UHGV virus genome: UHGV-0135963
Length of the DNA: 42,177 nt
Reading direction: 5' to 3' (one strand)
Origin: a virus
Shown here piece by piece: positions 50-39,848 of this stretch (position 1 is the stretch's first letter; every line of letters starts with the position of its first letter). A program made the position numbers and the translations under genes. The notes under the pieces are model-generated. The model made no database searches and was not told the origin of the DNA. It saw only the letters and a program-made list of their open reading frames with translations.

Positions 50-2782
50 TCAGGTCTTTCTTATTAACCATGCTTCCAGAGCGGCAACACTGCGTGTAAT
101 TTCTTCGTGTGGAAGGGGGGCAGATAATGGCTGCTGCTCCAGTTGTGCGCATAGCTGGCTGGCGCTACGCATTCCCAGACTCGAGCAACTGCTTTTTAGC
201 TGATGCGCGGCACGCTTTATTTTCTCGCTATCCTCACTGGCGCGGGCAATGTCGATGTCATCGAGAAGCGGCAGGGCATGTTGTGTAAATAATACCAGCC
301 ATTCGTGGATCTTCTCCGTCCCCATTAACTGAGCATCTTCATTGAGTTGCGATACATCCAGCGGTTGTTCGTTATTAGCTGGCAGTTGGAGATAGTGCGC
401 CAGTAACTGACCGAGCACTTCACGCGGCACCGGTTTAGGGATAATCCCGCGAAATAGCGAACTGGTACGCTGGCGCAACGTTTCGTCGATGACATGGGCG
501 CTAAAGCCAATCAAAACCAGCGACGGATATTGCTGTGCCAGTTGTCGGGCAAGCGTAATGCCGTCGATATCCGGTAGATCAAAATCCACCAGTGCGGCAG
601 CAAACGGTTCGCTATTTTGCAGTGCCTCTAAAGCCTGCGCGGCATTGCCAACAGCAACGACCTGCGCACCACTGTTGTTCAGCATCTCAACGGTAATTCG
701 CTGGGTTAGCGGGTTATCTTCAATTAACAGCAAACGTAAACCGTGCAGACACACCGCCTGATTGACTGTTTTTGGCACGGGGGCAGTGGCAACACGTAAC
801 GGCAAGCGTAAACAAAAACAGCTTCCAACCTCCGGTGTGCTGGTGGCGCTCAGTTCGCCGCCCATCGCCTGGGCCAGACGGCTACTGATAGTCAGCCCCA
901 GCCCGGTGCCGCCGCGTTTGCCGCTAACCTGAACAAATGGCTGGAAGATTTCAGCCAGTTTCGTGGGATCAATACCGCAGCCGCTGTCTTCCACTTCGAC
1001 CAGCCATTGTTCGCCATCAGTGCGACTACGCAGGATAATGTGCCCTTCGTCGGTGAAACGCAGAGCGTTGCTCAACAGGTTGGTAATGACCTGACGAATA
1101 CGCCGCGGATCGCCCATTAACGCAGTCGGTACATCGTCGGCAATTTCTGTTGCCAGGTGAATCGGGCGACCTTTCACCCGTCCGCTCATTAATTGCAGGG
1201 TACTTTCCAGCAGCGGGCGCGGTTCAAAGGGTTCATCGCTGACCGAAACATTCTTGCCGCCTGCTTCGATAGCCGAATAATCGAGAATATCGTTGAGGAT
1301 GGTCAGCAACGATTCACCAGAGTCAGTAATTGCGCGCAAATCATCGCGCTGGGCGTTAAGTGCGGGGTTATCTGCCAGCAGCTGTGCGGTGCCGAGAATA
1401 CCGTACAGCGGTGTGCGGATCTCATGGCTCATCGCCGCCAGAAACGCCGATTTTGCCTGGCTGGCTTTTTCTGCTTCCGCCCGTGCCTGTCGGTGTTCTA
1501 TCACCAGTTCCTGCAATTCAGCTGTACGCGCTTTGACCTGTGCCGCCAGCTGTTCGCGGTGGCGATTCAGTGCATGAACACTGCTGCGAAACGCATCCAT
1601 CAGCCGCCCGATGGTGTCCAGCTCCCGCACGCCAGCGGTTTCCGGAAAAGGGGAGTCGATATCACCGTCCAGTAAGCGTTGCAGCGCCTGCGTTTGTTCG
1701 GCAAGTGGACGCGTGACTGAGCGATAAACCACGCGCCAGAGGATCAGAATCAGTGCGCAAAGTGAAACCATCCCCAGCAATAACAGGCTGTACTGCCCGC
1801 GTGCACTGGCTTTTTCCAGATGCGCCAGACCGTGCTGATTACGCAGCTCAATGGTGTCGACCAGTTGACTGACTTCGCTACTAAACTGCGCGAACTGGGC
1901 GATGTTATTTTGCGTGAGAGTTTGCAGGCGATGACTGATTTCACTGTCCTGCTGATACAGCGCCAGCAAATCGCTATATTGGCTAACGGAAGTTAACGTT
2001 GTTGCAACCTGAGCACGAACTCCCGGATCTTCAATGCGTATTTGCCGACGTTGCAGAATTTTCACCGCATTATTGAGCTGCTTTTCCAGCGTTGGCGCAT
2101 TTTTCTGGATCTGTTCCAGCCCCAGATTCATCACCATTTGCTGCACCCGCAGGGCGCTAAGGCGCAGTTCATTCATCTGGTTAACATACTCAAGATCGAT
2201 ATCAATCAGCCGATCGAGTGCACTTTCTGCGGCCTGACGCTGATGTTGTTCGATCAAATCGTAAATCCCGGCCTGGGTCGCTCCGGCGGAGGTTGCCGCA
2301 TTATTCGCCTGACCTTGCGCCAGGCGTGCGATCTCATCGGCGGCGGCGACTATCTGCTGACTGAGTCGCTGTTGTTGCTGGCGCAGTTGCAAACGCTGCC
2401 CCACCAGTTCCCCTTGCTGACGTAACGAACGGGAGATCTCCTGCTCCTGTTGTTCAATAGCGGTGGTATCAAAACCTTGTTCCCGTAACGCTTGCAGCAA
2501 CGCATTAATCTTCAGGCTTTGTGCGGTGAGCATTCGCCCCTGCGCCTGCCACATCTTTTCGTTATCGGCACTGGTCAGGTTCTGCGCGGCGAAAAGTTCC
2601 CAGGCGCTGGCTTCGCTCAACTGGCGCGCCATATTCATGGTAGGAATCAATGCCTGAGTGTTGTCTTTTTCCACCTGGCTGATAAAGCGCAGGTTGTACC
2701 ATCCCACCAGGGTACTGGTCAGGGTTAACAGCGCCATCAGGGCAAAGCCCATCCAGAGTCTTCGGGTCAGGGTTAAATTCAC
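50..2782 (-). CDS. torS: TMAO-responsive hybrid sensor histidine kinase TorS (host gene)
   Basis: 910-aa ORF. N-terminal TM/periplasmic region, H-box (SHEIRTPL), HATPase G-boxes, receiver domain (LLLIEDNPL...DFDLPDIDG) and C-terminal HPt domain. N-terminus [19 protein letters not shown] matches my memory of E. coli TorS. Confidence 0.93.
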
Positions 2783-2789
2783 GGTCGGT

Positions 2790-2880
2790 GCACTTAAGGT
2801 GAATAAGTTGTATATTTAAAATATCTTTTGTTATCAATGAATTAATGTAAGCAGGTCATTATTAGTCAAAATAAAATCAT
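2790..2880. other. attL (B-O-P') attachment junction with Int arm-type sites
   Basis: Sequence upstream of the int stop (caggtcattattagtcaaaataaaatcatttgtcgatttcaattttgtccca) closely parallels the lambda attP P' arm with three arm-type repeats (AGGTCATTAT, TAGTCAAAAT, AAATCATTTG). The core is probably near ggtgaataagttgta (about 2800..2815). Exact core boundary not determined. Confidence 0.6.
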
Positions 2881-3950
2881 TTGTCGATTTCAATTTTGTC
2901 CCATTCCCGTCCACGGCTGTCCCTATACCGCGCCGCCATTGAATCTGATTTATGCCCGAGAAGACGTTGAGCAAACTTATCGCCAATCTGGTTCCGGTAT
3001 AGCCTCGCTGACAGGCTACGCAGTTCATGGAATGTTGGCGGGTTTCCATCAAATGAGAGTCCAGATGCATTTCTCGCCTTTGTAAAATACTTTGATACTG
3101 TTTTCGGGGAAAGCGGATCGTGATGCTTTGATGCGATTATAGTTTCACTGCTGCTGGCCTCCCTGCATTTCTGTAGTGTATCAGCCAATGAGATATTGAG
3201 CGCGTCAATCGTTAGCGTTAGCGGAATGGCGAGTTTAGCCCCTGTTTTACTCTGTTCAATGTGAAGATGGTTGTCGTTTATGTCTGACCATTTCATTCTG
3301 CACAAATCGCCGACTCTCTGCCCTGTAACGACGGCCAAATCCATCGCCAGCCTTAGCCAGATAGGGAGAGGTTCGGCTGCATGGTAAATCTCGACATACT
3401 CATTAGCTGTCAGCCTTGAGCGCCTTACTTCTGACTTTGCTGTACGGGTTGCTGTTACCGGATTCGTTGCCACATGCCCCTCGGCTATTGCTTCACGAAA
3501 AACGTCAACAAGGGTTGACCTGATTAATTTTGCGGAAGCTGCTTTACCTTCCGCTACGTAGGTGTTTAGCATTGCTGCCACATCTTTCGTTGATATGTCA
3601 GTGAGCGGTTTGTCCGGCAATTTTCTTCGGATTGCCCTGATTTTGCTGGCGTAGTCGAGTAGAGTTTTCGGCCTGATCCCCCTTTCGGTGAGGATTCTTT
3701 CATATCGGTCAAGCCACACATGAAGAGTGATTGCGTCACCGCCTTTAATTCTGTCTATCAGTGATTTGCGTCCGCTGTCTGAGAGTAACTCAATATTGGC
3801 CTGTATTGCTTCAGTGATTGCTATCCTCCTGTCTCGGCCTAATCCAAACTCTTTACCCGTCCTTGGGTCCCTGTAGCAGTAATATCCATTGTTTCTTATA
3901 TAAAGGTTAGGGGGTAAATCCCGGCGCTCATGACTTCGCCTTCTTCCCAT
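2877..3950 (-). CDS. int: Tyrosine integrase, lambda Int family
   Basis: 357 aa; N-terminus MGRRRSHERRDLPPNLYIRNNGYYCYRDPRTGKEFGLGRDRRIA is near-identical to lambda Int as I recall it. C-terminal catalytic region (HELRSLSARLY) conserved. Stop overlaps the P' arm. Confidence 0.93.
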   Translation of the reverse strand: MGRRRSHERRDLPPNLYIRNNGYYCYRDPRTGKEFGLGRDRRIAITEAIQANIELLSDSGRKSLIDRIKGGDAITLHVWLDRYERILTERGIRPKTLLDYASKIRAIRRKLPDKPLTDISTKDVAAMLNTYVAEGKAASAKLIRSTLVDVFREAIAEGHVATNPVTATRTAKSEVRRSRLTANEYVEIYHAAEPLPIWLRLAMDLAVVTGQRVGDLCRMKWSDINDNHLHIEQSKTGAKLAIPLTLTIDALNISLADTLQKCREASSSETIIASKHHDPLSPKTVSKYFTKARNASGLSFDGNPPTFHELRSLSARLYRNQIGDKFAQRLLGHKSDSMAARYRDSRGREWDKIEIDK

Positions 3951-6146: not shown

Positions 6147-6322
6147 ATCGCATTCAGATATTTGTTTTGATTTACTGACGGAAAAGAATTTCTCTTAAGC
6201 AATTCCTCTCTCGATGGCATTGGCTTTACGCGTTGGCGAATAATCATTTCTGCCGGAAGAATGCCGGGATTGTATGCAAGTCCTCTCATGGTAAATTCCT
6301 CAGTCATTACTGATAGCGCCAT
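6125..6322 (-). CDS. Hypothetical small protein (65 aa)
   Basis: ORF overlapping both neighbours by about 22 nt. Could be real operon packing or spurious. Confidence 0.3.
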
Positions 6323-6596
6323 AGCGTGAGCGGTAATTACGCAGGCGCGGGTCGATATATTCAGGGAAGTGGTTATATGTGGCTTTGCGGAATGGTCGGA
6401 TTGATGTTTCGTTTATTCGGTCTTTTTCCTGTTTTTCTGCGAGTTGTATATCGCGTCGGTACATCCGTTCTGCTTTTGTTTCTGGTGTCAGAGCAAGAAA
6501 CGCGTCGAAATTGTTTTTGATATTTTCCAGCACCTCCGCCTTGGAGCTACCGGAACAGCGGCGCGGGTCATTCGCACCATACAGAGGCGCTGGCAT
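6300..6596 (-). CDS. Hypothetical phage protein (98 aa)
   Basis: ORF in operon orientation upstream of the recombination module. No recognisable motif. Confidence 0.5.
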
Positions 6597-6619: not shown

Positions 6620-7003
6620 TTAGAAGGGAATTGAATCGTCGTATTCAGGATGATTTTGATGATTGCTACTTTGCTGCTGTTGGCTGTTTCCTGAAGTTGC
6701 AAATCCAATCTTTGCATTCAGTAATTCAAGAGTGATTGATTGACCATTTTGCCCCTGATAAACATCAACCCTGATGTTTTCTCCGGTAATTTCCACAATG
6801 CCACCTTCAACAAGAACACTACGGTAGTAATCCGCTTGCGCTCCAGGCTTGGCAAATACAACGGCGCTGTAGTTTGTCCATTCTTTCTTTTTTGTCTGGC
6901 GATCGTAATACTGAACGCCAGCACGGATGTTGAATCCGATATTTTCCCCTGCCTGAAACTCTCTTGCGGGCTTGTTTAGTCTTACAGTAATCGAATGTGC
7001 CAT
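6620..7003 (-). CDS. Single-stranded DNA-binding protein-like (OB fold with SSB-type acidic C-terminal tail)
   Basis: 127 aa. C-terminus ...QQQQSSNHQNHPEYDDSIPF carries the SSB tail motif D-D-x-I-P-F. Directly downstream of erf. Confidence 0.7.
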   Translation of the reverse strand: MAHSITVRLNKPAREFQAGENIGFNIRAGVQYYDRQTKKKEWTNYSAVVFAKPGAQADYYRSVLVEGGIVEITGENIRVDVYQGQNGQSITLELLNAKIGFATSGNSQQQQSSNHQNHPEYDDSIPF

Positions 7004-7608
7004 TAAGCAGCCGCTCCTTCTAATTCGTCTCGTCTGATGTTGTAAACGTCCTGCGCTTTGTGCTGCTCAGGTGTGCCTTCGAGCATCTTCCACGCTTTGG
7101 CGAACGCCTGTTTAAGCTCTTCTAAGGTGTTTTTCTGCATTGCTGCGTCAGTGAATGCTTTTAGAACCTGTTCAGGTGTAGGTGATGGTTTTGATTGCTT
7201 TGCTGCTGCGTTCTGCTGATGTTTATGCTCGTCGGTATCTGCATCTTTCGCATCATCAATGCCGAACAAACCATTGAGGCAATACTTGCGTGCATAAGAG
7301 CTTGTAGCTCCCGTAACTTGTGCAGAATCCATTCCTTTCTTGCTTTCTTCCTCTCGTGCAAGAGCGGTTGCTGTATGACTGTTTTCGCCATCGGTAATAG
7401 TTGCCGTGGCTTTCACGTAATACCGATCACCAATCAACACAACTTCATCGCTGATTGATAAAAACAGACCATTCAGTAACGGTTTAACGCCTTCAAGAAT
7501 ATCTTCGCAGCTTCTGTATTTATATTTACCGAATGAGTTGTACTGATTCTTTGGCGCGTTCAGATTTTCCTGAATAGCTGCCAGTCTTGCGTAAAATTCT
7601 TTGCTCAT
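7003..7608 (-). CDS. erf: Erf-family single-strand annealing recombinase
   Basis: MSKEFYARLAAIQENLNAPKNQYNSFGKYKYRSCEDILEGVKPLL matches P22 Erf as recalled. The ORF track extends 10 codons upstream (to 7638). I place the start at MSKEF. Confidence 0.8.
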   Translation of the reverse strand: MSKEFYARLAAIQENLNAPKNQYNSFGKYKYRSCEDILEGVKPLLNGLFLSISDEVVLIGDRYYVKATATITDGENSHTATALAREEESKKGMDSAQVTGATSSYARKYCLNGLFGIDDAKDADTDEHKHQQNAAAKQSKPSPTPEQVLKAFTDAAMQKNTLEELKQAFAKAWKMLEGTPEQHKAQDVYNIRRDELEGAAA

Positions 7609-7618
7609 ATGTTTGTTC

Positions 7619-7789
7619 TCAGAATGGACATGGCCCAAGGAAATAACGCTGATTTAATACTTCGACTCGGGACAAATTAAGGCATGCCCGCATTCCTTCG
7701 CGGTCGCCATTATGGCGATACCAGAGAGCTTTCTGCGTGTACATGCGTCTCTGTAACTTGCTCTCCTTCACTGTGGTTGCAAGTGACAT
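7619..7789 (-). CDS. Small ORF (56 aa), possible Arf-like accessory protein
   Basis: Hand-translated MSLATTVKESKLQRRMYTQKALWYRHNGDREG... Overlaps the neighbouring small ORF in another frame, so one of the two may be spurious. Confidence 0.25.
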   Translation of the reverse strand: MSLATTVKESKLQRRMYTQKALWYRHNGDREGMRACLNLSRVEVLNQRYFLGPCPF

Positions 7790-18697: not shown

Positions 18698-18882
18698 ACG
18701 CCACAATTCAAACGATACCAGAGCTTCTTATCCAGACACGAGGCAATCAGACCGAAGTGGCGAGGATGCTTTCCTGCGCAAGAGGAACAGTGCTCAAGTA
18801 CAACCGAGACAGCAAAGGCGAGCGTCACGTAATAGTTAACGGCGTCCTGATGGTCACGCCAGGCAAAAAGGGAAGACGATGA
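18694..18882 (+). CDS. ninH: NinH
   Basis: IQTIPELLIQTRGNQTEVARMLSCARGTVLKYNRD parallels lambda NinH (KTIPDMLVEAYGNQTEVARRLKCSRGTVRKYVDD). Confidence 0.75.
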   Translation: MNATIQTIPELLIQTRGNQTEVARMLSCARGTVLKYNRDSKGERHVIVNGVLMVTPGKKGRR

Positions 18883-19502
18883 GACTCGAAAGCGTAGCTA
18901 AATTTCACTCGCCAAAAAGCCCGATGATGAGCGACTCACCACGGGCTACGGCTTCTGACTCTCTTTCCGGTACTGATGTGATGGCTGCTATGGGGATGGC
19001 GCAATCACAAGCCGGATTCGGAATGGCTGCATTCTGTGGTAAGCACGAACTCAGCCAGAACGACAAACAAAAGGCTATCAACTATCTGATGCAATTTGCA
19101 CACAAGGTATCGGGGAAATACCGTGGTGTGGCAAAGCTTGAAGGAAATACTAAGGCAAAGGTACTGCAAGTGCTCGCAACATTCGCTTATGCGGATTATT
19201 GCCGTAGTGCCGCGACGCCGGGCGCAAGATGCAGAGATTGTCACGGTACAGGCCGTGCGGTTGATATAGCCAAAACGGAGCAGTGGGGGAGAGTTGTTGA
19301 GAAAGAGTGCGGAAGATGCAAAGGCGTCGGCTATTCCAGGATGCCAGCAAGCGCCGCATATCGCGCTGTAACGATGCTAATCCCAAACCTTACTCAACCC
19401 ACCTGGTCACGCACTGTTAAGCCGCTGTATGACGCTCTGGTGGTGCAATGCCACAAAGAAGAGTCAATCGCAGACAACATTTTGAATGCGGTCACACGTT
19501 AG
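18879..19502 (+). CDS. Q: Late-gene antiterminator Q (lambda type)
   Basis: 207 aa, essentially identical to lambda Q as recalled (MRLESVAKFHSPKSPMMSDSPRATASDSLSGTDVMAAMGMAQSQAGF...). Confidence 0.92.
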   Translation: MRLESVAKFHSPKSPMMSDSPRATASDSLSGTDVMAAMGMAQSQAGFGMAAFCGKHELSQNDKQKAINYLMQFAHKVSGKYRGVAKLEGNTKAKVLQVLATFAYADYCRSAATPGARCRDCHGTGRAVDIAKTEQWGRVVEKECGRCKGVGYSRMPASAAYRAVTMLIPNLTQPTWSRTVKPLYDALVVQCHKEESIADNILNAVTR

Positions 19503-19544
19503 CGGCATGATTGCCACGGATGGCAACATATTAACGGCATGATA

Positions 19545-19573
19545 TTGACTTTTTGAATAAAGTTGGGTAAATT
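19545..19573 (+). promoter_or_regulatory. Late promoter PR' (-35 TTGACT, 17-bp spacer, -10 TAAATT) with overlapping qut
   Basis: ttgactttttgaataaagttgggtaaatt matches the lambda PR' layout. Confidence 0.75.
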
Positions 19574-19579
19574 TGACCC

Positions 19580-19776
19580 AACAATGGGTTAATTCGCTCG
19601 TTGTGGTAGTGAGATAAAAAGAGGCGGCGCTTACTACCGATTCCGCCTAGTTGGTCACTTCGACGTATCGTCTGGAACTCCAACCATCGCAGGCTGAGAG
19701 GTCTGTAAAATGCAATCCCGAAACAGTTCTCAGGTAATAGTTAGATCCTGCATAACGGTTTCGGGATTTTTTATTT
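19580..19776 (+). ncRNA. 6S-like leader RNA ending at terminator tR' (hairpin 19714..19768 plus U-run to 19776)
   Basis: Region co-linear with lambda PR'-tR'. Terminator aatcccgaaac...gtttcgggatttttt. Confidence 0.6.
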
Positions 19777-19851
19777 GGATCAGTCGTATAAAGGTCATTA
19801 CGGAAGGCTGTTAACCTTCTTATCGTGGTTCGAGTCCACGCTGTCCCGCCA
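19777..19851 (+). tRNA. tRNA-like gene, anticodon GTT (Asn); imperfect acceptor stem, possibly degenerate
   Basis: 75 nt ending GCCA. Perfect anticodon arm GAAGG-CTGTTAA-CCTTC, T arm CGTGG-TTCGAGT-CCACG, GG in D loop. Acceptor stem has 2 mismatches; D stem only 3 bp. Confidence 0.5.
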
Positions 19852-19856
19852 AACAT

Positions 19857-19932
19857 GCTGGTTTAGCTCTAATGGTAGAGCAGTCGCCTTGTAAGCGAAT
19901 GGGTAGCGGTTCAAGTCCGTTAACCAGCACCA
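19857..19932 (+). tRNA. tRNA, anticodon TGT (Thr)
   Basis: 76 nt. Acceptor stem GCTGGTT/AACCAGC (7 bp), D arm GCTC-TAATGGTA-GAGC, anticodon loop CTTGTAA, T arm AGCGG-TTCAAGT-CCGTT, encoded 3' CCA. Confidence 0.75.
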
Positions 19933-20174
19933 TAACTGAGCCGTAGCCACTGGCTATCCTGAATTCATCAGTGATAGTTACGCTGCGGCCTTCTACACAT
20001 GATCTTCGTGAAAGCGGGTGGCAGGAGGTCGCGCTAACAACCTCCTGCTGTTTTGCCCGTGCATATCGGTCACGAACAAATCTGATTACTAAACACAGTA
20101 GCCTGGATTTGTTCTATCAGTAATCGACCTTATTCCTAATTAAATAGAGCAAATCCCCTTATTGGGGGTAAGAC

Positions 20175-20498
20175 ATGAAGATGCCAGAAAAACATGACCT
20201 GTTAGCCGCCATTCTCGCGGCAAAGGAACAAGGCATCGGGGCAATCCTTGCGTTTGCAATGGCGTACCTTCGCGGCAGATATAATGGCGGTGCGTTTACA
20301 AAAACAGTAATCGACGCAACGATGTGCGCCATTATCGCCTGGTTCATTCGTGACCTTCTCGACTTCGCCGGACTAAGTAGCAATCTCGCTTATATAACGA
20401 GCGTGTTCATCGGCTACATCGGTACTGACTCGATTGGTTCGCTTATCAAACGCTTCGCTGCTAAAAAAGCCGGAGTAGAAGATGGTGGAAATCAATAA
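20175..20498 (+). CDS. S: Holin S (class I, dual start)
   Basis: 107 aa [35 protein letters not shown]... matches lambda S. Met1-Lys2-Met3 dual-start motif. Confidence 0.95.
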
Positions 20499-21448: not shown

Positions 21449-21597
21449 ACATCTGAATTTCACAGCGCATCTCACGCGCATATTACATCACCCGAGCCTT
21501 TCAGAAAGTTGAGCCTGAGAACTGCCGTATATGGTGGCGACCATCTCGGGGCGGCTTTTCTGTGAGACAGGCTCACTTTCTAAAAGGTAAAGACGCT

Positions 21598-22116
21598 ATG
21601 AATCATCAATTGGCTAATCTCGATTTCCGGGACATGGTGGTTGTTTCTGGTGATCGCGTGATCACAACCTCCCGCAAGGTAGCAGCTTACTTCGACAAGC
21701 AGCATCACCACATCATTCAGAAAATCGAAAAGCTAGACTGTTCGGATGAATTTCTAACCAGCAACTTTTCGCGGGTTACCTATGAACACAAGGGTAATCA
21801 GTATGTTGAATATGAAATTTCCAAAGACGGTGCGATGTACATCATCATGTCGTTTACCGGCAAAAAAGCTGCCGCCATCAAAGAGGCGTTTATCAAAGCA
21901 TTTAATTGGATGCGTGACAGGCTGATGGAGATGGCTCACTCATACCAAAGAGAGCACAACGAGTTAATGCTGGAGTTCATGAAGGAAAAGGATGTTGCCA
22001 GTATGTCAGGACGCTTGCTGAACCGCTGGGGCAGGATCAAAAAACCTCAACTCATAGCAAGAATCGAAAGGCTTGAGCAGCAGGCGCAAATATCGATCCC
22101 CGGACTGCCAAAGTGA
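21598..22116 (+). CDS. Rha-family phage regulatory protein
   Basis: VITTSRKVAAYFDKQHHHIIQKIEKL is typical of the Rha/pRha N-terminal domain. The ORF track begins 12 codons earlier (21562). Confidence 0.65.
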   Translation: MNHQLANLDFRDMVVVSGDRVITTSRKVAAYFDKQHHHIIQKIEKLDCSDEFLTSNFSRVTYEHKGNQYVEYEISKDGAMYIIMSFTGKKAAAIKEAFIKAFNWMRDRLMEMAHSYQREHNELMLEFMKEKDVASMSGRLLNRWGRIKKPQLIARIERLEQQAQISIPGLPK

Positions 22117-36494: not shown

Positions 36495-36818
36495 TTAATC
36501 ATCCATGGATGGATTGAGATTATCTCGTGTTGATGTGGCGATTTGTCCTACATTTCTAAGCCAAGATTTCAAATCCTTGATATTGTCATTGATTTCATGA
36601 ATATCTTCTTTTTTTAATCTGTTAATATTATTTTCAATAATTTCAATGGATTGCTCAATATCAGATATAGTGAATGATAGTTTGTTCTTCTCATCTTTTA
36701 TTGAGTTTTTAAGTGCTTCGTTCTCAGTCTTGAGGTCAGATATCTTTTGTTTTAAAGATGCCAGTTGGTACTGAACCACAATGAGTGCGATAGCTATCAC
36801 GATAACTGTTGTATACAC
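36495..36818 (-). CDS. Small membrane-anchored coiled-coil protein (107 aa); third gene of accessory cassette
   Basis: N-terminal TM helix (TTVIVIAIALIVVQY) followed by heptad-like coiled coil. Strongly AT-rich. Convergent with gp16. Confidence 0.55.
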   Translation of the reverse strand: MYTTVIVIAIALIVVQYQLASLKQKISDLKTENEALKNSIKDEKNKLSFTISDIEQSIEIIENNINRLKKEDIHEINDNIKDLKSWLRNVGQIATSTRDNLNPSMDD

Positions 36819-36840
36819 ACCAACCTCCTTAGTTGATATT

Positions 36841-37260
36841 TTATTTGTATGAAATCAACGAGTTAAGCTCCCTCTCATTTAGAGATTGGAATCTTTTTTC
36901 AGTTATATCAATGATGGTTGGCAATAGTTTTTTTACCTTCTCATGACCATCAGGTTTAATGATAGCAATGATCTGGATATGAATTGGATATGTGTTGTGT
37001 ACCGCAAATATCAAAAAGTTATCGCTAACTCTACGATGTATTGGCGTTGTTTTTAACCAAGGATCATCTACTCCAGGGATCCTGATGTGCGACTTGTAAA
37101 TTCCCGATAAGACGGCGTGATGGTTTCTCTCAAACCCACCAATCTTACCAAGATAAGCTGAAACGGTGCCTCTGTTTTTGTAGTTTGCAAGAGCCTTCGC
37201 AAAGTATTGTTCTAATGGTCCAGCCGCTGCATCTACAACAATGCTTATGCGGTTTTCCAT
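36841..37260 (-). CDS. YafO-like toxin-domain protein (139 aa); second gene of accessory cassette
   Basis: C-terminal region FLIFAVHNTYPIHIQIIAIIKPDGHEK resembles the YafO core (HLVYC...AWLLIAILKPEPHK) as I recall it. Needs profile search. Confidence 0.55.
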   Translation of the reverse strand: MENRISIVVDAAAGPLEQYFAKALANYKNRGTVSAYLGKIGGFERNHHAVLSGIYKSHIRIPGVDDPWLKTTPIHRRVSDNFLIFAVHNTYPIHIQIIAIIKPDGHEKVKKLLPTIIDITEKRFQSLNERELNSLISYK

Positions 37261-37844
37261 TTTGGTGCTTCCATGCCAAATCTTTTATGTGAATCTTCAA
37301 CTGATTTCTTGAATGAAGCCAACTCTTCTTCAGTGAACTCTTCAGGTTCAGCATATGATAGTGGTATGTGCTGCATTGCTAGCGTCACAAGCCCCATAGT
37401 TAGCCTTTTGTATTCTATAAAAGTATTTATTGAGTGGTTTTTCATTGTTGTAAGAGTTGACATATGGGGCTTCCACGCATCGCTGTTCTCAGCGATGAAG
37501 AAGGTATACAACAGTTTCGCGATACCATAATCAAGCTTAGATATCTGATCGCTCAACATATCTACATCGTCATGTTGAATATCAAGTGAGGAAATATCTT
37601 CTTCCGTACCATTACTTAATATGTCAATGAATGTAATGTACTTTTTGCAAACTTCCTCTACAGGTGACATAACGCAGTAGATCTTGCTAAGAGCTTCAGA
37701 AGCCTGTTTTTTAGACAAAGAGCCGCTATGACTGCGATCAAAGTCTGAAATTGAACGCTCGATAGATGTTGATATGTCAGAAAAAACGTTTTCAATTTTT
37801 CCTGGCTCTTGATTCAGGATGGCCATAACGCCTATCTCAATCAC
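37245..37844 (-). CDS. Acidic hypothetical protein (193-199 aa); first gene of accessory cassette
   Basis: No TM or recognisable motif. Start is either GTG (37844) or ATG (37826). 16-nt overlap with the downstream gene. Confidence 0.55.
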   Translation of the reverse strand: MIEIGVMAILNQEPGKIENVFSDISTSIERSISDFDRSHSGSLSKKQASEALSKIYCVMSPVEEVCKKYITFIDILSNGTEEDISSLDIQHDDVDMLSDQISKLDYGIAKLLYTFFIAENSDAWKPHMSTLTTMKNHSINTFIEYKRLTMGLVTLAMQHIPLSYAEPEEFTEEELASFKKSVEDSHKRFGMEAPKWKTA

Positions 37845-38661: not shown

Positions 38662-38861
38662 GTAAAGAATGTTGTTTCTGCGGCATTAGCGAATCAGACG
38701 CTGATCAAACATACATTTACTCTAAAGAAACAGGTCGGATGCTGTGTAGTGACTGCGTGTTGGACATCATAAGATACAAGCATCTTGGATGTTCTGCCAG
38801 CATTAGCAATATAGGTGAAGTATATGAAGGGAAAGATATAACTGATAGAGCAGAAAGTTGA
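38658..38861 (+). CDS. Small Cys-rich protein (67 aa, CxxC...CxxC zinc-ribbon-like)
   Basis: CCFCG...CSDC motifs. Start overlaps arc stop (ATGA). Confidence 0.45.
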   Translation: MSKECCFCGISESDADQTYIYSKETGRMLCSDCVLDIIRYKHLGCSASISNIGEVYEGKDITDRAES

Positions 38862-38924
38862 AGCCCCAACTGCGGCAACAGTCAGGGCTTCGGTATCGTA
38901 AAACCACGCATAGGAATTAACGAC

Positions 38925-39848
38925 ATGAAAAGTATAGCAACAGCAGTATCTACTATCAATGTGCCATTCCACGGCGCAGAGCTTTATGTTGTCAATCACA
39001 ACGGCGAACCGTACACCCCAATGAAACCTATCGTTGAGGGAATGGGGCTAGACTGGAAATCTCAACATAAGAAGATTTCTCAACGCTTCTCGAAGGGTAT
39101 GGTGGAAATCACCATACCTTCTGCCGGTGGGGTGCAAGCCATGATTTGTATGGCTTTACGAAAATTGGCAGCTTGGTTGAACAGCATCAGTCCTAACAAA
39201 GTCCGCCCTGAAATCCGCGACAAGGTAATCCAGTATCAGGAAGAGTGTGACGATGTGCTCTACGAGTACTGGACTAAAGGCCATGTAGTTAACCCACGCA
39301 AAGCTAAAAAGGCGTTGCCGGGTAAAATCACCACTGAACAGCAGGAAGCCATTAAACAACTCGTCATGAGTCGCGGTCAGTCTCTGCCAAAAGAAAAACA
39401 GGCTAAGGCGATGATCACCATGTGGTCGTCACTGAAATCCCATTTTGGATGTTCGTACAAAGAAATCAGTGAGGAGCAGTTTACCGAAGCACTGTCACTT
39501 GCAGCTCGAGTTCCACTTGAAGGTGAGTTCATCGGCAAACAAGAGAAGAAAACCAACGAGCTTTCTGCAAAAGAAGCAAACAGCCTTGTATGGCTATGGG
39601 ACTATGCCAACCGCTCACAGGCATTATTCCGCGAATTGTATCCGGCGCTAAAACAAATTCAATCGAACTATTCCGGCAGATGTCATGACTGCGGTTATGA
39701 GTTCTCCCGTATTATCGATATGGCGAGAGATGTTTTAATCAATCACACACGAGATGTTGATATCAATGAGCCAGACGGACCAACGAATCTTTCCGCATGG
39801 ATGAGACTTAAGAATAAAGAATTACCTCCTTCAGTACATAACTACTGA
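38925..39848 (+). CDS. ant: Antirepressor (Ant-like)
   Basis: 307 aa, in the ant position of the immI arrangement (mnt / arc / ant). N-terminal AntA-like region. Family assignment from position and general resemblance only. Confidence 0.65.
   Translation: MKSIATAVSTINVPFHGAELYVVNHNGEPYTPMKPIVEGMGLDWKSQHKKISQRFSKGMVEITIPSAGGVQAMICMALRKLAAWLNSISPNKVRPEIRDKVIQYQEECDDVLYEYWTKGHVVNPRKAKKALPGKITTEQQEAIKQLVMSRGQSLPKEKQAKAMITMWSSLKSHFGCSYKEISEEQFTEALSLAARVPLEGEFIGKQEKKTNELSAKEANSLVWLWDYANRSQALFRELYPALKQIQSNYSGRCHDCGYEFSRIIDMARDVLINHTRDVDINEPDGPTNLSAWMRLKNKELPPSVHNY

Follow-up and report, generated by a model that had tools for sequence, protein, structure and literature searches.

Two tRNA-like genes lie directly behind the late terminator of the prophage UHGV-0135963. 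Are they functional tRNA genes, how did they come to stand there, and what could a temperate phage gain from them? We analysed the whole stretch of DNA available for this phage (42,177 nucleotides, hereafter the window). It is an E. coli prophage integrated beside torS. Our reading is that both are functional tRNA genes and form a phage 21/Sf6-type late-leader cassette, carried here on a lambda-type Q-PR'-qut-tR' module, and that they would supply cleavage-resistant copies of tRNAs attacked by the defence nucleases P2 Old and PARIS AriB. We give this reading a probability of about 0.6.

Identity of the two tRNA genes

ARAGORN found exactly two tRNAs in the 42 kb of the window, both on the plus strand (Table 1). 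With Rfam RF00005, tRNA-Asn scores 49.9 bits (E = 7e-8) and tRNA-Thr 63.2 bits (E = 1.5e-11). The gathering score of this model is 29 bits, and both genes are far above chance. The first-pass annotation had described tRNA-like genes with anticodons GTT (Asn) and TGT (Thr) at 19777-19932, and had proposed tRNA callers as the check. Both programs score both genes and the cloverleaf is supported, so that the genes are genuine.

The conserved tRNA core is present in both: U8, G18-G19, the T-loop GTTCRA, a 7-nt anticodon loop, U33, a purine at position 37 and CCA. The core sequences are GGTTCGAGTCC and GGTTCAAGTCC. The anticodon loops are CUGUUAA in tRNA-Asn and CUUGUAA in tRNA-Thr, on the stems GAAGG/CCUUC and GUCGC/GCGAA. 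The bases G1-C72, C2-G71 and A73 of tRNA-Thr match what we take to be the identity elements of E. coli ThrRS. Likewise, G73 and GUU of tRNA-Asn presumably satisfy E. coli AsnRS.

The covariance alignment flags three non-standard pairs in tRNA-Asn. They are 3-70 (A·C), 4-69 (U·U) and the innermost D-stem pair 13-22 (U·U). These correspond to the two acceptor mismatches and the weak D stem already noticed in the first gene. In contrast, the acceptor stem of tRNA-Thr is fully paired, and its sole flagged pair is 27-43 (G·A), which cuts the anticodon stem to 4 bp. Position 14 of tRNA-Thr is U, where relatives have C and the usual tRNA base is A. This D-loop T (base 19870) is a minor allele.

Table 1. 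Features of the late-leader locus, in window coordinates
Feature	Position	Strand	Details and support
Q, lambda-type late antiterminator	18879-19502	+	Pfam PF03589 Antiterm, E = 1.3e-57; annotated as Q in the co-linear HK446, mEp506 and Kapi1
PR' late promoter	19545-19573	+	TTGACT / 17-nt spacer / TAAATT; HK446 annotation 'similar to coliphage lambda PR''; lambda identity 96.7%
tR', lambda-type terminator	19714-19776	+	stem AAUCCCGAAAC / GGUUUCGGGAUU; U-run 19767-19772, then AUUU
tRNA-Asn(GUU)	19777-19851	+	75 nt; encoded CCA; discriminator G73; anticodon 19810-19812; ARAGORN and Rfam
Inter-tRNA spacer	19852-19856	+	AACAT, 5 nt; read from the sequence
tRNA-Thr(UGU)	19857-19932	+	76 nt; encoded CCA; G1-C72, C2-G71, A73; anticodon 19890-19892; ARAGORN and Rfam
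Leader before the holin gene, common to lambda, phage 21 and Sf6	19934-20174	+	alignment
Holin gene S, first protein-coding gene of the late operon	20175-20498	+	ORF list; holin in CUS-3, Kapi1 and HK446

Junctions with lambda

The window from 19500 to 20200 matches lambda 44507-45211 in two pieces, with 96.7% identity. The left piece ends at 19774 (...GGGATTTTTTAT) and the right one, AACTGAGCCGTAGCCACTG, starts at 19934. A block of 159 bp (19775-19933) takes the place of 163 bp of lambda (44782-44944), between the tR' U-run and AACTGAGCC. The segment PR'-qut-tR' had been described as co-linear with lambda up to the U-run, and the shared left anchor bears this out. Lambda homology was also said to return right after the second gene, and it does so one base past tRNA-Thr.

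No relatedness between the two blocks is detectable by global alignment (z = 1.2; 288 of 2000 shuffles score as well). In the lambda block, no tRNA is found by ARAGORN or by Rfam at E <= 1. Non-tRNA DNA of lambda has been replaced by the tRNAs, as the first-pass annotation proposed. We considered the lambda block as a decayed copy of both tRNAs and rejected it. The lengths are nearly equal and both blocks share CAGCAC, but they align no better than expected by chance, and no tRNA signal appears even at E <= 1. Recombination at the terminator U-run is the best explanation for how the cassette was joined to the lambda-type module.

The cassette lies between tR' (19714-19776) and S (20175). The RNA of 19700-19776, which contains tR', folds with -22.7 kcal/mol (z = -4.2). 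Downstream, the common leader has a hairpin with stems at 20021-20029 and 20040-20048, followed by UGUUUUG (fold of 20010-20060, -26.3 kcal/mol, z = -3.7). A simple terminator scan of the plus strand flagged neither tR' nor this hairpin; both are supported by folding instead. The leader stretch is annotated in CUS-3 as 'bsq3 boundary sequence', and the annotation of phage L places a terminator 3' of its tRNAs.

Relatives of the cassette

The tRNA-Asn/tRNA-Thr cassette is already known, and the window copy is an ordinary member. The records of Sf6, SfI, mEp506 and Kapi1 annotate the pair (98-99% identity), as do those of S137 and Oslo, and PGAP calls it in E. coli prophages. Phage 21 has the pair too, and hundreds of E. 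coli prophages contain it. Published work places it "downstream of Q". The cassette has been annotated since the Sf6 record was deposited and is common in prophages of E. coli, Shigella and Salmonella; for genome annotation it is routine.

Over 171 bp, the window copy is 98.8% identical to both Sf6 (tRNA features at AF547987 36065-36139 and 36145-36220) and phage 21 (AJ237660). The order, the 5-nt spacer and the right flank AACTGAGCC leading to a lambda-type holin are the same, and the tRNA likewise starts 4-5 nt past the terminator U-run. The window differs from both phages in A3 of tRNA-Asn and in T at D-loop position 14 of tRNA-Thr. It also differs in the upstream module, which is lambda-type here and a phage 21-type Q/qut/tR' in theirs. 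The lambda-type module is found again in HK446, mEp506, Kapi1 and 86 complete E. coli genomes. Among 119 loci, the terminator upstream of the cassette is phage 21-type in 96 and lambda-type in 23. A further locus outside this set (L136) has the cassette without an upstream terminator. We treat the lambda-type module as a context variant and keep the tRNAs in the phage 21/Sf6-type family.

Recent capture from the host was rejected. Only 53 of 76 bases are shared between tRNA-Thr and thrU, and 44 of 76 between tRNA-Asn and asnT.

Another temperate coliphage, P1, carries a tandem with the same two anticodons in the same order, Asn then Thr, with a 2-nt spacer. However, its tRNA-Thr is only about 80% identical, its tRNA-Asn is different, and it is located outside a late leader. 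P1 carries its Asn-Thr tandem independently.

Expression from the late leader

PR' is the sole sigma-70-like site in 19450-20250, and the promoter scan of this interval gave no separate promoter between PR' and the tRNAs. By co-linearity with lambda, qut would overlap PR' and continue past it. With no promoter-like site other than PR' and a gap of just about 4 nt from the U-run to position 1 of tRNA-Asn, Q read-through of tR' seems to be the only transcription route that the sequence offers.

In lambda, PR' is constitutive and the passage of tR' depends on Q. By the same co-linearity, PR' would fire constitutively in this prophage and RNA polymerase would halt at tR' unless modified by Q. Q-modified polymerase, or a small read-through fraction, would then make both tRNAs first in the late transcript. 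Host RNase P and 3'-end nucleases would free them; CCA addition would be unneeded because CCA is encoded. During late protein synthesis, tRNA-Thr(UGU) would read ACA, and tRNA-Asn(GUU) would read AAC and AAU.

In the prophage BTP1, two tRNA genes at the same position are listed apart from five other genes with TPM > 100 (PMC7067206). This listing implies that both are highly represented in the RNA-seq of lysogenic cultures.

Conservation of the family and a private allele of tRNA-Asn

We compared the diversity of the tRNAs with that of the surrounding DNA in a MAFFT alignment of 69 haplotypes. Pi is 0.009 for nucleotides 1-48 of tRNA-Asn and 0.016 for tRNA-Thr. In the spacer it is 0.112, and in the 80 nt downstream 0.106. 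The diversity of the tRNAs is 7-12x below that of the flanking non-coding DNA, and the segregating sites differ between tRNAs and non-coding DNA (Fisher p = 9e-5 and 6e-4). A pseudogene would show a substitution rate like its flanks; here, 0.009 and 0.016 stand against 0.106-0.112. Moreover, tRNA-Thr presents a compensated change, G5-C68 to U5-A68, in 5 loci. Because the tRNAs are 7-12x more conserved than flanking non-coding DNA, the Asn gene as a family is not decaying and is under strong constraint.

These values bear on whether the genes could be functionless, either passenger DNA or recombination landmarks at the boundary between the late-regulation and lysis modules. The cassette does stand exactly at the module joint, behind at least two unrelated terminators (96 phage 21-type and 23 lambda-type loci), in L136 without any upstream terminator, and adjoining the 'boundary sequence' of CUS-3. 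Nevertheless, passenger DNA should not be 7-12x less diverse than the non-coding DNA next to it, nor carry a compensatory pair change. The equivalent genes of BTP1 appear expressed (PMC7067206), and the Thr allele of phage 21 is biologically active (PMC12445682). We consider this explanation very improbable, and the published rescue experiment described below has already largely refuted it.

The constraint applies to the family, and the window copy of tRNA-Asn must be considered apart. The first gene had been called decaying or unusual. Decay does not hold for the family, whose pi is 0.009 against 0.106 in the flank, and U4·U69 is the family-wide state. Unusual does hold, since A3·C70 is private to the window. 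A3 (base 19779) is a G-to-A change present in 0 of 118 related loci, and also absent from HK446, mEp506, Kapi1, PEC011 and L007. It had 0 matches in IMG/VR and 0 in 185,579 species genomes. No compensating change at position 70 was found.

The consensus allele G3 scores 55.3 bits in the covariance model and A3 49.9 bits, a cost of 5.4 bits. The minimum free energy goes from -21.6 to -17.6 kcal/mol, with about 4 kcal/mol lost. The predicted register slips and leaves a 5-nt 3' overhang, and the fold z-score of the A3 tRNA-Asn is only -0.4. According to these models, the A3·C70 mismatch may impair the window tRNA-Asn.

Could this copy then be crippled and heading to a pseudogene, with tRNA-Thr still functional? 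A3 beside U4·U69 makes two adjacent unpaired acceptor positions. The privacy of A3 across all searched loci and viral and species genomes fits such a course, as do the losses in covariance score, free energy and fold. Further private changes occur near the cassette, notably at 19730, and an integrated prophage (here by torS) can build up mutations without selection. On the other hand, the A3 copy clears the gathering threshold by 21 bits, and its anticodon and G73 are intact. Recognition by AsnRS rests on these two elements, and acceptor mismatches are often tolerated in phage tRNAs. Relatives also show U·C at 4-69, apparently tolerated. Finally, a single base could be a sequencing error. A crippled copy is unlikely in our view, and we retain two functional tRNAs as the preferred reading. 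A3 is a natural acceptor-stem variant for comparison.

Nuclease determinants in the anticodon stems

P2 Old and AriB of the PARIS system are Toprim tRNA nucleases. Old kills by cleaving tRNA-Thr(UGU) of the host; the cut falls 3' of the C in paired C-N-G motifs of its anticodon stem. Slower substrates of Old are Asn(GUU), Lys(UUU) and Val(UAC) (PMC12445682). The targets of AriB are Lys(UUU), Thr(UGU) and Asn(GUU), cleaved at U36-A-A-U39-C40|N41, and cleavage is lost when U39 is changed (PMC12409363). The anticodons of the window fit the targets of Old, UGU being the preferred one and GUU a secondary one.

The C-N-G motifs were compared at nucleotides 28-30 and 40-42. The window tRNA-Thr has UCG/CGA (U28 for C28, CGA for CAG) and a 4-bp stem, where the host thrU has CUG/CAG. 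In the window tRNA-Asn, AAG/CUU contains neither motif, whereas the host asnT (CGG/CCG) has both. At position 39, the window presents G39 in tRNA-Thr (UAAGCG) and C39 in tRNA-Asn (UAACCU), against UAAUCA and UAAUCC in the host. Neither window tRNA has any of the published cleavage determinants of P2 Old and PARIS AriB, all of which are present in thrU and asnT. The anticodon-stem states of the window are kept in 115 of 119 Asn genes. U39 is absent in 108 of 119 Thr genes, 103 of them with the exact window sequence.

Previous work gives the Thr part experimental backing. The tRNA-Thr(UGU) of phage 21 'also protected against P2-OLD'; in vitro, Site 1 of this tRNA was almost fully resistant (PMC12445682; Govande et al. 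2025, NAR). The resistance is due to changes in the C-N-G motifs and a shortened anticodon stem; rescue needs the UGU anticodon class, and extra host tRNA-Thr does not rescue Old toxicity (PMC12445682). The need for this anticodon class indicates, indirectly, that the phage 21 tRNA-Thr is matured, charged and active in translation. The rescue was partial, with plasmid expression and a 'remaining growth defect' (PMC12445682). The window tRNA-Thr is one D-loop base off the sole tRNA-Thr(UGU) seen in the phage 21 record AJ237660. The 'tRNA-Thr21' of that work is probably the AJ237660 gene, and the published allele apparently lies one D-loop base from the window copy. The two tRNAs are alike in the UGU anticodon, the C-N-G changes on both strands, the shortened stem and the family. 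They differ in setting, since the work of PMC12445682 used plasmid expression and the window gene sits in a phage late leader beside tRNA-Asn, in a lambda-Q hybrid.

For PARIS, the comparison is with T5, whose Lys(UUU)/Thr(UGU)/Asn(GUU) set acts against AriB (PMC11464382; PMC12409363). Two of these three isoacceptors are shared with the window. In the rescuing T5 set, Thr and Asn carry G39, and the window tRNAs also lack U39. However, T5 is virulent, has 20-plus tRNAs, and its tRNA sequences are no close relatives of those in the window. A resistant tRNA-Lys(UUU) was required for PARIS bypass in the T5 work (PMC12409363), and ARAGORN found no tRNA-Lys(UUU) in the whole window, only the two tRNAs.

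Cleavage-resistant copies of this kind would probably counter Old of P2 prophages and AriB of PARIS on P4-like satellites. Counteraction of P2 Old is experimentally backed for the phage 21 Thr allele, and would extend to the Asn partner and to PARIS by the loss of determinants. A counter-defence role for the Asn partner seems a reasonable inference from its anticodon stem. The prophage also encodes Abc2, an anti-RecBCD protein, which is a plausible trigger of RecBCD-guarding systems.

Several observations speak against counter-defence. Nine related loci have a hybrid tRNA-Thr with a host-like anticodon stem. The P1 tRNA-Thr keeps both C-N-G motifs, and its tRNA-Asn keeps UAAUCA. From the late leader the tRNAs would arrive late, perhaps after Old and PARIS have already acted. 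Taken alone, the motif argument is weak, because a diverged tRNA often differs at positions 39-42 by chance.

Codon usage of the late genes

The Stx phages (933W-type) have the tRNA genes ileZ-argN-argO downstream of PR'/tR', ahead of the lysis genes. The arrangement is alike: in a lambdoid phage, the late leader under Q control carries tRNA genes before the lysis genes. Unlike the window, these are Ile and Arg isoacceptors, and rare codons are the classical explanation.

In the traditional view, the tRNAs of the window would also serve codon supplementation only, in a phage richer than its host in A/T-ending codons. We made the comparison of late genes with the host that had been suggested for ACA and the Asn codons. 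In the late genes, 31% of Thr codons are ACA, against 10.5% in 40 E. coli K-12 genes. Per 1000 codons, its excess in the late genes is 3.1-fold (p = 2e-14), and only two codons are more enriched. For Asn codons the enrichment is 1.4x, and for AAT 2x. In the E. coli K-12 annotation, thrU is tRNA-Thr(UGU), and it is the only E. coli tRNA with a UGU anticodon (PMC12445682). The authors of the SfI paper found the same ACA bias (17.3% vs 7.1%), and the phage L paper argues from the Asn codons of the coat gene (PMC8022706). For the Thr gene, the ACA bias could be explanation enough.

Nevertheless, AGA (8.1-fold), AGG (6.6-fold), TCA and ATA are enriched as much or more, and the matching tRNAs are absent from the window. 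In the SfI study no bias towards Asn codons was seen, and its authors had no explanation for the Asn tRNA. The bias of the early genes is as strong (ACA share 32%), and these are translated before the late leader is transcribed. Codon supply leaves unexplained why both tRNAs depart from their host counterparts precisely where the nucleases have their determinants. It also leaves unexplained why the phage 21 allele, and not extra host tRNA-Thr, rescues Old toxicity. As the whole explanation, it is rather doubtful. An extra supply of a scarce ACA-decoding tRNA to an ACA-rich phage could well be a second benefit, compatible with functional tRNAs that resist cleavage.

Implications for temperate coliphages

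Taken further, the whole Asn(GUU)-Thr(UGU) tandem could be a compact counter-defence cassette of temperate coliphages, holding resistant copies of two top substrates shared by Old and AriB. Its capture would have happened more than once: in the late leaders of lambdoids, where at least two unrelated terminators precede it, and in P1. Q read-through would switch the lambdoid copies on. The Asn partner would then explain part of the 'remaining growth defect' left by tRNA-Thr alone, and lambda 44786-44870 would be a decayed copy of a P1-type element. We put this forward tentatively, as a proposal less likely than not. In P1 the tandem precedes a tRNA-like element, and the lambda block that is displaced in the window is homologous to this element. 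There are hints that lambda 44786-44870 is a decayed copy of this structured, T-arm-bearing RNA element directly 3' of the P1 tandem, and that the three parts once formed an older module.

Beyond what was known of the cassette, our analysis adds the loss of determinants in both tRNAs, the 7-12x conservation, the private A3 as against the family-wide U4·U69, and the same tandem in P1. The interest of the cassette stems from the recent work on Old and PARIS, which are widespread defence nucleases of P2-like prophages and P4-like satellites. Host tRNA-Thr(UGU) is a target of both nucleases, and tRNA-Asn(GUU) is cut at a slower rate. A lambdoid prophage with candidate resistant copies of this very pair, presumably under Q control, lends itself to asking whether temperate phages win conflicts with other phages by means of small tRNA cassettes. 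It could also show whether the classic P2 sensitivity of lambda reflects the absence of this cassette.

A P22-like mosaic prophage carrying two tRNA genes

The window begins in host DNA. A torS ORF adjoins a lambda-type integrase, which places the prophage insertion next to torS. In the late half, identity to CUS-3, a P22-like E. coli phage, is 96.6%. A sar antisense RNA adjoins the antirepressor gene, and the prophage therefore has a secondary immunity region (immI). Together, these features define a P22-like mosaic prophage, which carries a lambda-type Q (PF03589), PR', qut and tR'. Its recombination genes are of the P22 type (abc2, erf), instead of lambda gam/red.

Two other regions deserve mention. 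Three leftward ORFs, located between the genes for DNA injection and immI, could represent a moron of the toxin-antitoxin or defence kind. A Rha-family regulator lies between the lysis and terminase genes, a common moron position.

Table. Features of the window.
Feature	Position	Strand	Support
Host torS (910-aa ORF, TorS sensor kinase)	50-2782	-	PF21689, E = 4e-89
Lambda-type integrase	2877-3950	-	
abc2 (anti-RecBCD)	6300-6596	-	E = 2e-48
erf	7003-7638	-	
PR'	19545-19573		
tR' hairpin and U-run	19714-19776		z = -4.2 (fold)
tRNA-Asn(gtt)	19777-19851	+	ARAGORN; Rfam tRNA model 49.9 bits
tRNA-Thr(tgt)	19857-19932	+	ARAGORN; Rfam tRNA model 63.2 bits
Second hairpin, then UGUUUUG	20014-20060	+	-26.3 kcal/mol, z = -3.7
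Rha-family regulator, ORF11CD3 domain	21562-22116	+	
Three leftward ORFs	36495-37844	-	
Middle ORF, YafO type II toxin family match	36841-37260	-	PF13957, E = 1e-11
P22-type sar antisense RNA	38856-38923	-	Rfam 83.6 bits
Antirepressor gene ant	38925-39848	+	Adjoins sar

ARAGORN calls two tRNA genes and no others in the whole window, and both score above the Rfam tRNA model threshold (29 bits). Both encode their CCA ends. The first-pass annotation had described an Asn (GTT) and a Thr (TGT) gene here, the first with acceptor mismatches and a weak D stem. This finding is real and was correctly read. The covariance alignment flags pairs 3-70 (A·C), 4-69 (U·U) and 13-22 (U·U) in tRNA-Asn, and 27-43 (G·A) in tRNA-Thr.

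The pair belongs to a known, mobile cassette

The tRNA-Asn/tRNA-Thr cassette is already known. Phage 21 (AJ237660) and Sf6 have a 171-bp block 98.8% identical to that of the window. The Sf6 record annotates "tRNA-Asn ... similar to phage 21" and "tRNA-Thr" straight after "t R'". Both genes are annotated downstream of a lambda-type Q in mEp506 and Kapi1, and are present without annotation in HK446. The SfI paper also puts the pair downstream of Q and records it in Sf6, ST64T, PS3 and p21 (PMC3636060). The phage L paper places tRNAs at the same site and left their excision from the late mRNA as unknown (PMC8022706). Among 5426 complete E. coli genomes, 652 match the query, with tRNA-Asn and tRNA-Thr annotated there by PGAP; the full lambda-tR'/tRNA joint occurs in 86. 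Thus the window pair is an ordinary, previously annotated member of this cassette; for the Thr half, a function has now been published.

An exact-match scan of IMG/VR gave at least 120 stretches. We compared the window with 118 related loci (n = 119), including the Sf6, phage 21 and phage L reference loci. Among the matches listed, the upstream terminator is of the phage 21 type in 96/119 and of the lambda type in 23/119. In L136, a locus outside the 119 and without a terminator, the upstream sequence departs exactly at tRNA position 1. The two terminator types and this divergence indicate that the cassette is a mobile module, its left edge placed by these alignments at the tRNA 5' end. The microhomology used at the lambda-type joint is TTTTTTAT, present in both terminators.

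The second slot varies. Nine of the listed IMG/VR loci (L010, L029, L064, L065, L073, L080, L081, L091, L092) have a hybrid tRNA. Its 5' third is that of the phage Thr gene, and the anticodon and T arms resemble those of host thrU. As in the host, it has U39-C40-A41; C-N-G is present on the 5' strand, and a single locus has it on both. A glyT-like tRNA-Gly(UCC) lies 2 nt downstream. The structure resembles a product of recombination with the host thrU-tyrU-glyT-thrT operon. In Salmonella phage L / ST64T (L004:888-959) and in L074, the slot holds a 72-nt "tRNA-Leu(TAA)" (42.1 bits). The acceptor arm is still of the Thr type and A73 is retained, but the anticodon arm is different, the D region is 4 nt shorter and a long variable arm is absent. 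This gene may derive from the Thr gene by remodelling.

Comparison with lambda

Window 19500-20200 and lambda 44507-45211 align in two pieces with 96.7% identity. The left homology stops at 19774 (...GGGATTTTTTAT) and the right one restarts at 19934 (AACTGAGCCGTAGCCACTG). The replaced block is 159 bp in the window (19775-19933) and 163 bp in lambda (44782-44944). Since these lengths are nearly equal, we tested the lambda block for decayed tRNAs. The global alignment was at chance (z = 1.2, 288/2000 shuffles), and lambda 44782-44944 gave no tRNA by ARAGORN and none by Rfam at E <= 1. From these boundaries and the absence of lambda tRNAs, the earlier description of a substitution between the tR' U-run and the resumed homology is accurate to within two bases.

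Inside the displaced block, lambda NC_001416 44786-44870 (L001:580-664) is homologous to about 95 nt directly after the tRNA-Asn/tRNA-Thr tandem of P1 (OP279344 65552-65650; L137:1579-1676; GCACAACAGGTAAG...CCGTTGTG.TGAAT). In the fold of the P1 element, GAGGGTTCGAATCCCT, a canonical T-arm motif, is enclosed by a long terminal stem (-41.6 kcal/mol, z = -5.0). The lambda copy lost 16 nt of the T arm and kept the stem (z = -3.9). Neither a tRNA nor an Rfam family matched this element. It lies under the CDS "plp" in P1 NC_005856, and Enterobacter phage BUCT554 has an 86% copy.

Acceptor mismatches and constraint

The two acceptor mismatches of tRNA-Asn differ in history. U4·U69 is the usual state of the family in the 119 listed sequences; rare variants are G4·U69 (1 locus), U4·G69 (2) and U4·C69 (2). 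On the other hand, A3 (19779) occurs only in the window. G3, pairing with C70, is present in 118/118 other listed loci. It is also found in HK446, mEp506, Kapi1, prophage PEC011 and L007, the locus sharing the window's rare T at 19746. Exact matching of the A3 allele gave nothing in IMG/VR or among 185,579 species-representative genomes, and none of the listed loci compensates for it at position 70. Its cost is 5.4 bits (55.3 to 49.9) and about 4 kcal/mol.

In the tR' leader, 19730 and 19746 are G-to-T changes relative to lambda, HK446, mEp506 and Kapi1. Among the listed matches, T at 19746 is otherwise only in L007 and the 19730 change is private. With A3, they form a local cluster of rare changes. 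What is specific to the window is the private G3-to-A, together with the lambda-type upstream module, though many relatives have the latter.

Nucleotide diversity (MAFFT alignment, 69 distinct haplotypes) was 0.009 in tRNA-Asn, over nt 1-48 because the search pattern held the remainder fixed, and 0.016 in tRNA-Thr. It reached 0.112 in the 5-nt spacer and 0.106 in the next 80 nt, a mosaic flank where part of the diversity is recombination. The tRNAs differ from the downstream flank (Fisher p = 9e-5 for Asn, 6e-4 for Thr). In addition, five listed loci have a compensated change in tRNA-Thr, G5-C68 to U5-A68. From the low diversity and this compensated pair, both genes are kept by selection. The first-pass annotation suggested that the first tRNA may be decaying or unusual; as a family it is not decaying (0.009 vs 0.106), and A3 is private to the window copy.

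Expression

PR' is the sole promoter-like site in 19450-20250, including the stretch upstream of the tRNAs, which start about 4 nt past the tR' U-run. A second strong hairpin (GCAGGAGGU / ACCUCCUGC), conserved in lambda, separates the tRNAs from the holin gene. Phage L has a terminator annotated at the equivalent place, and the hairpin could be a second terminator bracketing the tRNAs. This suggests that transcripts leaking past tR' could yield tRNAs and stop short of the lysis genes. Q-modified polymerase would read past both structures. In prophage BTP1, two tRNA genes at the same position are listed separately from five other genes with TPM > 100, implying a high signal in lysogenic cultures (PMC7067206). 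Kapi1 lysogens show an antisense signal opposite the tRNAs (PMC12922286).

Codon supply or counter-defence

Of the Thr codons in late genes, 31% are ACA, vs 10.5% in 40 E. coli K-12 genes (17.3 vs 5.5 per 1000 codons; p = 2e-14). The frequency of Asn codons is 1.4 times that of the K-12 sample. Codon supply is thus plausible for the Thr tRNA and weak for the Asn one. The SfI paper also saw the ACA bias and termed the Asn tRNA unexplained (PMC3636060). However, AGA, AGG, TCA and ATA show an equal or greater enrichment with no matching phage tRNA, and early genes have an equal ACA bias (32%). Therefore, codon supply leaves the choice of these two tRNAs unexplained.

Defence nucleases offer another possible explanation. 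P2 Old is the effector in classic P2-lambda interference; it kills through cleavage of host tRNA-Thr(UGU), 3' of the cytosine in paired C-N-G motifs of the anticodon stem. Lys(UUU), Asn(GUU) and Val(UAC) are slower substrates (Govande et al. 2025, PMC12445682). Phage tRNA-Thr(UGU) genes rescue cells; that of phage 21, partially, from a plasmid. In vitro, its Site 1 resists cleavage almost completely, which was ascribed to changed C-N-G motifs and a shorter anticodon stem (PMC12445682). PARIS AriB cleaves Lys(UUU) and Thr(UGU), and Asn(GUU) less efficiently. The cut falls between nt 40 and 41 in U36-A-A-U39-C40, and changing U39 abolishes cleavage (2025, PMC12409363). T5 Lys, Thr and Asn tRNAs together neutralise PARIS (PMC12409363).

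Table. Anticodon stems of host and window tRNAs.
tRNA	nt 28-30 / 40-42	nt 39	Anticodon stem
Host thrU	CUG / CAG	U	5 bp
Host asnT	CGG / CCG	U	5 bp
Window tRNA-Thr	UCG / CGA	G	4 bp (G27·A43)
Window tRNA-Asn	AAG / CUU	C	5 bp

Both host tRNAs have the paired C-N-G motifs and U39, and neither window tRNA has any of these. Among the matches listed, the window's nt 36-41 sequence is in 115/119 Asn genes, and U39 is missing from 108/119 Thr genes (103 with the exact window sequence). The window tRNA-Thr is one D-loop base (19870) from the phage 21 gene, an allele in 7/119 listed loci and PEC011.

Several observations count against counter-defence. The hybrid Thr genes of nine listed loci have a host-like stem. 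P1 Thr keeps both C-N-G motifs and P1 Asn keeps UAAUCA, unlike the window. Moreover, chance differences at these positions are frequent in any diverged tRNA. The two tRNAs of the window do not include the tRNA-Lys that was necessary against PARIS in the T5 work (PMC12409363), which limits the reading.

The Old and PARIS studies do not mention the phage 21 tRNA-Asn or a tRNA cassette of lambdoid or temperate phages (PMC12445682, PMC12409363), and a counter-defence role for the Asn gene may be a new proposal. We give about one chance in three that the Asn-Thr pair serves as a unit against Toprim nucleases, and it is worth an experiment. Old reacts to RecBCD inhibition (PMC12445682), and the abc2/erf type of the prophage bears on whether RecBCD-guarding defences such as P2 Old would be triggered.
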